NCBI RefSeq assembly: GCF_053078305.1
Contig: NZ_CP166879.1
Direction: 5' to 3' (one strand)
Length of the DNA: 64,000 nucleotides
Positions 4,845-6,068 of this stretch are shown here, piece after piece. The notes below the pieces were generated by a model. That model worked only from the letters and a program-made list of their open reading frames with translations. It was not told the origin of the DNA and did not search any database. The stretch's first letter is position 1; each line of letters begins with the position of its first letter. The position numbers and the translations under genes were made by a program.

Positions 4845-6068
4845 TTATGGTATTATATTCTGATAATGATTTGATAAGCGAATTCTTTTACCAGACGGTA
4901 TTTCTATTTCCACCCCATAATTTATATCTTTTTCATCAGGAAGTGGCCTCTTTAAATAAGGCGTGCGTGACATTTTTTTTGGGTTAAGCGTCTCGTATTG
5001 AAATACTTCGAATTGATATTCAGACATTTCTGCCCATGTTTGAATTTTATTGTATCGGGAGAGTGTCGTAAAGGCTTTAACTTGCTTATAACATTGTTTT
5101 TGGAATTCTTGCTGATATTTTAATATGTCGTTGTATGAAAGATTGGTTATCCTGGCCTCTAAAAATTTAATTATTGTCGAAGCAATTTCCGCTTTTGCTC
5201 GTAAAAAGTTGTCATTAATGGTTAATAATGTTGAAAATAAACCTTCGATTTGTTTGTCAAGATATTGTTCGTCTTTATATAATTTTGGGGTAGGGTGTTC
5301 TTTATGTGAAAAAATAGTGTCACCTAAATTTGCGTCAGTGAAATTTATATTAAGTAGATCTTCGAAATAAAACCTTGACAAGGTTAGAACGAACCCGGAC
5401 AGGTTCTGTCCTGTCATATTGAAATCAATAAAGTTGGTTCCGGCAAAGACTTTCATCCTGTTTTTATTTTCACTGTGCTCAATATATAACTTCGTCATTT
5501 TTTGATACAGGCTTTGAATATCTTTTATATTAGTCGGTAAGTCAGCTCGTTGTTCAGCAATAAAATTAGTATCTGAAAACATGGTTTGGACACTGAATCT
5601 TACTGGTATTCCCTCTTCTACGCTAATTTTAGTTATGATTGCCTTGTCGGGTTTAGGATTAGCGACAACAATGATTCGACATTCAGCACTTTTGTTCTTT
5701 TCGTATCTAATGTTATTAATTTGATTAAGTATTTCCTGTGCCTGCCGCGTAAGTGGTGTCGAACTTATCGATTCAATGTTAGTAATAAGACTTACAAGTT
5801 GAGCCACAACTTTTGAGTAGTCTGCATCTGTATATTTGGTGTTCGTGCGGCACGCATAAATTTGTGGGAGGTGTTGCCGCGCTAAATCATATTGTTCAGG
5901 GTTGTATCCTTCTCCAGAGAATGTGGAATTAATGGGTTGTTGTTCTTCCCGATTATCACAAGGCCACATCGGTGTGTCTGGTGTTTTAACATTGTCGGTA
6001 TCTGTTGTGCGGTTATAAATATCGCCGTGATATGTATTTATCATACCTGGGGTAAAGTCAATTGACAT
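4845..6068 (-). CDS. yhiS: Uncharacterised protein YhiS (intact here; recalled as IS5-disrupted in K-12)
   Basis: 407 aa AT-rich ORF between slp and arsC, the position of yhiS in K-12; no IS sequence present. Confidence 0.6.

Follow-up and report, generated by a model that had tools for sequence, protein, structure and literature searches.

An intact full-length yhiS gene between arsC and slp, and the frequency, divergence and predicted structure of its alleles

In Escherichia coli K-12 the yhiS gene (b3504, P37635) is a pseudogene disrupted by the insertion element IS5 (PMC11677980, PMC8170033). We wanted to determine whether an open reading frame found between arsC and slp in another genome is the undisturbed form of this gene, whether such a form is unusual, and what can be said about the protein that it would encode. 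The analysis was performed on a stretch of 64,000 nucleotides from contig NZ_CP166879.1 (assembly GCF_053078305.1). This whole stretch is called the window, and all positions refer to it. The coordinates of the features discussed below are collected in Table 1.

Table 1. Features of the window at and around yhiS, in order of position.
Feature	Position	Strand	Basis or remark
chuA (haem receptor)	226-2208	+	in-frame amber stop at 1519-1521
dctR	3346-3876	-	same-strand neighbour
slp	4032-4598	-	same-strand neighbour; start at 4598 as annotated in colinear genomes
N-terminally extended slp ORF	4032-4763	-	243 aa
yhiS-slp intergenic region	4599..4844	-	terminator scan: 0 sites
yhiS coding sequence	4845..6068	-	ORF, colinear with the IS5-excised K-12 gene, dN/dS below 1
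A8 homopolymer in yhiS	4973..4980	-	codons for NPKKM; one base fewer here in O157:H7
Pentapeptide-repeat segment, residues 206-255	5304..5453	-	ten in-register pentads
TTAG, K-12 IS5 insertion site	5323..5326	-	unoccupied in the window; K-12 junctions and blastn breakpoint
arsC-yhiS intergenic region	6069..6694	-	yhiS-proximal part AT-rich, REP-like palindromes distal
Shine-Dalgarno-like AAGGA	6074..6078	-	5 nt upstream of the yhiS ATG, read from sequence
Two REP-like imperfect palindromes	~6540-6650	-	by eye
arsC	6695-7120	-	same-strand neighbour; intact
ars junction	7181-7184		arsR and nearly all of arsB missing
AgrB / dinQ region	7296-7379 and 7654-7737	- and +	Rfam scan and TB06052 annotation

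The reading frame between arsC and slp and its K-12 counterpart

The minus strand of the window contains at this place a single open reading frame with an ATG start and 407 codons followed by a stop, which is the only one in the frame (codon 408). The first-pass annotation had described an uninterrupted frame of 407 codons here without stating its strand, and the ORF listing of the window returned it with the same coordinates and length. It had also called the gene AT-rich, which was borne out by a GC content of 35.4% (31.6% at third codon positions) as compared with 50.6% for the whole window. The composition profile places the gene inside a GC trough of 31-40% that extends across approximately 4600-6400. 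At the base composition of yhiS about one codon in 14 should be a stop, and the probability of obtaining 407 consecutive sense codons by chance is approximately 1.4e-13. The ATG start is supported by the N-terminus MSI.FTP, which was invariant in 65 alleles; a Shine-Dalgarno-like motif precedes it (Table 1).

We defined the yhiS slot as the interval between arsC, or the gene that replaces the ars operon, and slp-dctR. In the window arsC, yhiS, slp and dctR lie on the same strand, and the gene order around this slot was conserved in the nine other genomes examined. The window allele of yhiS is 100% identical to the allele of JX21CE8.

In K-12 MG1655 an IS5 transposase gene occupies this slot, flanked by two pseudogene fragments (yhiS-1 and yhiS-2) that are both annotated as 'hypothetical protein'. 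The break in the K-12 gene mapped by blastn to positions 5323-5327 of the window. At the K-12 junctions the sequence is ...AAATTTAG/GGAAGGTGCG... and ...CACCTTCC/TTAGGTGAC... (slashes mark the breaks), as left by an IS5 insertion with duplication of the target TTAG. This target spans codons L248/G249 and lies in the pentad ANLGD. Excision in silico of IS5 and one TTAG from the K-12 sequence restored an ORF of 407 codons, closed by its only stop. This ORF is colinear with the one in the window, and the two share 92% amino acid identity. Nucleotides 1-746 of the K-12 gene were 94.6% identical to the window copy. Thus the interruption of K-12 yhiS by IS5 at the matching position, which the first-pass annotation had put forward, agrees with the breakpoint, with the TTAG duplication and with the two papers cited above; the alignment with the K-12 fragments, named there as the check, was colinear, so the proposed relatedness stands. 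We conclude with near certainty that the window ORF is orthologous to K-12 yhiS and intact. Unlike the K-12 gene, the window copy carries no IS5 and its TTAG site is empty. The window allele belongs to an O157-like allele class, while that of K-12 falls in the K-12/NT1F10 class.

Several further features of the surrounding region were recorded. At the ars junction 1687 bp are missing relative to JX21CE8 and K-12, and the DNA immediately preceding arsR runs straight into the last ~60 bp of arsB, followed by arsC. Since arsR and nearly all of arsB are deleted, arsC in the window may be expressed while both its repressor and the efflux pump are lacking. A query across this junction was covered to at least 80% in one place in approximately 305 of 5426 complete genomes, in some of them only as two joined pieces; ZH193 likewise lacks arsR and arsB. 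In chuA, codon 432 is changed from CAG to TAG, which divides the gene into two ORFs (431 aa and 222 aa), while the sequence is otherwise 99.65% identical to chuA of JX21CE8. Because chuA is intact in TB06052, the closest colinear genome, this stop may be private to the window strain, or it may be a sequencing error. An Rfam match to AgrB (108 bits) was detected between arsC and gor, upstream of arsC, and it was the only Agr-type match in the scanned stretch; in the colinear locus of TB06052 the annotation places the dinQ toxin gene at matching coordinates. Two REP-like palindromes, ...GGATGCGACGCTGGCGCGTCTTATCCGACCTAC... and ...GTAGGCCTGACAGGCGTAGCGCATCAGGC..., were noticed in the sequence just downstream of arsC. 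The extended frame at slp begins upstream of the start that colinear genomes annotate (188 aa, MNMTKGAL...).

Full length of YhiS and losses of the gene

Existing annotation raises the question whether 407 codons are the true length of yhiS. PGAP calls the JX21CE8 allele a 'frameshifted' pseudogene, even though it is identical to the window allele, and gives the same label to the alleles of ECA64 and TB06052; the labels on these three intact alleles cover the interval equivalent to 4952-6068 of the window. In O157:H7 the same locus carries an annotated CDS of 1116 bp with a product of 371 aa (WP_001303709.1), 99.2% identical to window yhiS at the nucleotide level. It could be proposed on these grounds that window yhiS is itself a frameshifted pseudogene and that the 371-aa O157-type product is the true protein. 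We aligned eight yhiS alleles, and all of them but O157:H7 were 1224 bp long with one 407-codon ORF each. Every flagged allele translated in this way, including that of TB06052, which differs from the window allele by 1 nt and has a clean 407-codon ORF. O157:H7 was the only gapped allele in the alignment. It lacks one base in the A tract, at nucleotide 1089 of the gene, and the resulting frame shift replaces the C-terminal 36 residues, whereas the window allele retains all 407 aa. Alleles with 95.8%, 89.2% and 85.6% nucleotide identity are likewise 1224 bp long, and annotation treats their CDSs as intact. The 36 C-terminal residues that the O157 product lacks show high conservation, and the last 30 of them are conserved even in P0116, the most divergent homologue (62% identity, 410 aa). 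The frameshifted reading was therefore rejected on the allele alignment, and we find it hardly credible.

In the protein database the commonest length of YhiS is 407 aa, with clusters of 8964, 2855, 539, 394 and 190 members. Because this length is modal, divergent alleles are intact and the C-terminus is conserved in P0116, 407 aa is apparently the ancestral full length of the protein. The PGAP flag is most likely an artefact and looks like a systematic one, and the cause that we infer is matching to the truncated O157 protein. Such spurious labels on O157-like yhiS alleles could mislead pseudogene counts. Since tracts of this kind slip easily, frameshifts are likely to recur at the A8 tract, and homopolymer sequencing errors are likely there too.

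The frequency of the gene was assessed in 5426 complete E. coli genomes. Sensitive blastn detected yhiS sequence in 5416 of them and full-length coverage in 3997 (74%), where full length means a single place covering at least 80% of the query, a definition under which O157:H7 was counted among the full-coverage genomes. yhiS is a chromosomal gene, and nearly all E. coli carry it at a fixed place between arsC and slp. The uninterrupted form is the majority state and is ordinary. The intact copy had been valued in the first-pass annotation as a source of undisturbed sequence; the full-length sequence is indeed present, but the rarity that this implied was overstated in view of the above count and of the 407-aa proteins already deposited by thousands. 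Intact YhiS sequence is public many thousandfold, and the window copy brings no new sequence. As the disruption of the K-12 gene by IS5 is textbook annotation, window yhiS has little discovery value in itself. An origin of the gene from phages or plasmids was also considered and rejected, as tblastn gave no match to yhiS in phages and the three 'plasmid' hits were records of 4.8-4.9 Mb, apparently chromosomes.

Several lineages have lost yhiS. In the K-12 lineage the loss came through the IS5 insertion, approximately 1,050 genomes, such as ZH193, retain only a 380-bp 5' remnant after a 3' deletion, and in SCU-172 the disruption is associated with IS1. With the 1-bp deletion of O157:H7, the gene has been inactivated independently at least four times, and it is dispensable enough to be knocked out in several lineages. 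For studies of YhiS, K-12, O157:H7 and ZH193-like strains are therefore unsuitable, and the allele class of the window is a valid full-length source.

Constraint and divergence among yhiS alleles

We compared the window allele with four others by the Nei-Gojobori method. The dN/dS ratio was 0.35-0.49 (about 0.35-0.5) and was below 1 in Fisher tests (p = 2e-3 to 3e-13). There were no indels among the 1224-bp alleles, down to 76% amino acid identity. Along the gene, omega was 0.13-0.26 for residues 151-325, 0.86 for residues 51-100 and 1.05 for residues 326-375, and the scan revealed no segment in which it was clearly above 1. The C-terminus of YhiS varied little or not at all among 65 alleles. 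We regard it as nearly certain that yhiS is a real protein-coding gene. The pattern of constraint is that of a functional protein whose core is constrained and which has two loose segments, and not that of a decaying open frame.

The alleles differ from one another far more than do their surroundings. YhiS proteins are 62-93% identical, while flanking genes are 96-100% identical in nucleotides. In comparison with strain 47-1826, yhiS was 85.5% identical, whereas the yhiS-slp spacer, slp, the slp-dctR spacer and dctR were 98.8-100% identical. In comparison with the strain carrying P0116 the values were 76.7% for yhiS, 98.6% for slp and 96.3% for gor. For slp, dN was 0 and dS was 0.01-0.07; the dS of yhiS reached 0.31-0.60. 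The gene thus stands out as an island of divergence with sharp edges, with 76-96% nucleotide identity in yhiS against 96-99% for slp and dctR in the same strains (flanks 3346-4844 and 6069-9143).

Identity also changed within the gene. Between the window allele and K-12-type yhiS it lay at 89-94% in the first ~400 nt and rose to 96-100% in most of the remainder (in steps of 100 nt), and the alleles of ECA64 and WWCOL-236 were 100% identical over nucleotides 1101-1200. Since identity between 100-nt steps switches abruptly, these patterns indicate intragenic recombination among old allele classes.

The predicted protein, its relatives and its possible role

From residue 206 onward, ten pentads follow one another without a break in YhiS, each centred on L, F or M, and none of 20,000 shuffled sequences attained such a run (0/20,000). 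D or N often stands just before the central residue. By the definition that we used (at least eight tandem in-register pentads of A[D/N]LXX-like form with a hydrophobic centre), this is a pentapeptide segment, and the IS5 of K-12 falls in its ninth pentad. Four pentads form one coil of a right-handed quadrilateral beta-helix, and those of YhiS would make approximately 2.5 turns. AlphaFold2 built no beta-helix; mean pLDDT was 38.5 with nine alleles and 33.6 with 65, and the alignment, which contained alleles only, was too shallow for a firm fold assignment. On the Kyte-Doolittle scale, hydropathy over 19 residues peaked at 0.99. As there is no hydrophobic segment, neither a signal peptide nor a membrane span is expected, and YhiS is predicted to be soluble.

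A domain search of the 407-aa protein, which the first-pass annotation had suggested, yielded this pentapeptide segment and no curated family above threshold. The sole Pfam hit was a pentapeptide match of 11.6 bits (E = 0.22, residues 240-253), below the PF00805 gathering threshold of 20.2 bits. No NCBIfam family matched YhiS at E<=1, and no model of PHROGs or PADLOC matched it. Among 5.8 billion proteins there were 136 hits, and all those with a named source came from E. coli or Shigella. When 1.84 billion representatives were searched exhaustively with an HMMER profile, the result was one full-length YhiS cluster with fragments, and no relatives of the N-terminal or C-terminal regions. By these searches yhiS appears restricted to Escherichia/Shigella, with no relative detected outside. 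Weaker HMMER matches (283-1569 aa, E from 1e-8 to 9e-4) covered profile positions ~180-330, and all eight that were checked were strong Pfam pentapeptide-repeat proteins; the E-values of such distant matches are inflated, because a segment of ~50 residues aligns to many repeats in each target. A profile search of the PDB gave only Rfr32 (2f3l, E = 0.005) and a thylakoid pentapeptide protein, both on residues 203-255. The marginal hits of a single-sequence PDB search, including a spurious isochorismatase at E = 0.15, were disregarded.

YhiS therefore has in-register pentads in common with pentapeptide proteins of PF00805 such as Rfr32 of Cyanothece. Unlike these, it consists of repeats in only ~50 of its 407 residues, scores below the family threshold and has flanks without detectable relatives. 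We know of no characterised stand-alone pentapeptide protein as short as ten pentads. DNA mimics of the Qnr/MfpA/McbG type consist essentially entirely of repeats, which form roughly 8-10 coils and a rod of the size of DNA. YhiS shares the motif with them but has only about 2.5 coils. A Qnr-like mechanism was set aside as unlikely, since the repeat tract is too short to mimic gyrase-bound DNA.

Promoter-like hexamers in the arsC-yhiS region were not above chance in the promoter scan (13 vs 9.8 ± 3.2 expected). The terminator scan found no intrinsic-terminator-like site between yhiS and slp, and the Rfam scan found no match within or beside yhiS. Two reports concern K-12, where yhiS is broken: one includes the arsC/yhiS intergenic region in its H-NS-bound 'promoter islands' (PMC3661553), and the other names yhiS as one of the loci with high affinity for StpA (bioRxiv 10.64898/2026.02.10.705075). 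YdeO binds near yhiS, but overexpression of YdeO did not induce the gene (PMC4222967).

Taken as a whole, it is highly probable that the window carries an intact, full-length yhiS, which is a real AT-rich coding gene, restricted to Escherichia/Shigella and recurrently lost. Our proposal for its mechanism is tentative. The core of YhiS (residues ~151-325) would contain the ten pentapeptide repeats and then a helical region, and the protein might act as a small rigid scaffold for protein-protein interactions. The fast-evolving N-proximal (~51-100) and C-proximal (~326-375) segments would contact a variable partner. Expression of the gene would probably be limited to conditions that relieve H-NS silencing.

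Other explanations were weighed against this one. A decaying relic, still open but non-functional, silenced by H-NS and with merely residual constraint, would account for the repeated inactivations, with the 3' deletion in ~1,050 genomes among them, for an omega of about 1 in residues 326-375 and 0.86 in residues 51-100, and for the position of yhiS within H-NS/StpA-bound DNA in K-12. Deletion of yhiS in the Keio collection, made in K-12 with the gene already disrupted, left the chlorhexidine MIC unchanged (PMC8170033), which agrees with a relic as well. However, dN/dS over the whole gene is significantly below 1 (p = 3e-13) and the low omega extends over 175 core codons. The frame and the exact length have been kept through 24-38% amino acid divergence despite stop-prone DNA of 35% GC, and the protein is conserved at its start as well as at its C-terminus. 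A relic is for these reasons unlikely.

It could also be argued by analogy that YhiS is a secreted protein with pentapeptide repeats, similar to type III effectors, exported by a type III system and directed at a host or competitor target, so that an arms race would explain its divergence. In function YhiS may resemble the type III substrates PipB/PipB2 of Salmonella and EspX of E. coli. Its N-terminal ~55 residues are polar and have no Sec signal and no predicted secondary structure (both models were of low confidence), the pentapeptide segment is internal, the gene is AT-rich and the family lineage-restricted, and the alleles are divergent mosaics with segments in which omega is ~1. Against this, no effector family of NCBIfam or Pfam matched at E<=1, where only the weak generic pentapeptide hit appeared. 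Sequence of yhiS moreover occurs in almost all the E. coli genomes that were searched, commensal, laboratory and pathogenic alike, and the gene has no segment with omega clearly above 1. We think that an effector is very improbable.

We give little credence also to a broader reading, in which yhiS would be an Escherichia-specific orphan built on a minimal pentapeptide beta-helix, with deep mosaic alleles kept by diversifying or balancing selection on the two fast-evolving segments, where they would meet a variable external partner (phage, host or competitor). If it were true, this reading would mark yhiS as an unrecognised factor and not a silenced leftover. In summary, the near-universal presence of yhiS, its recurrent knock-out and its divergence far above that of the flanking genes make it a reasonable, low-priority candidate for studying the evolution of H-NS-silenced orphan genes.
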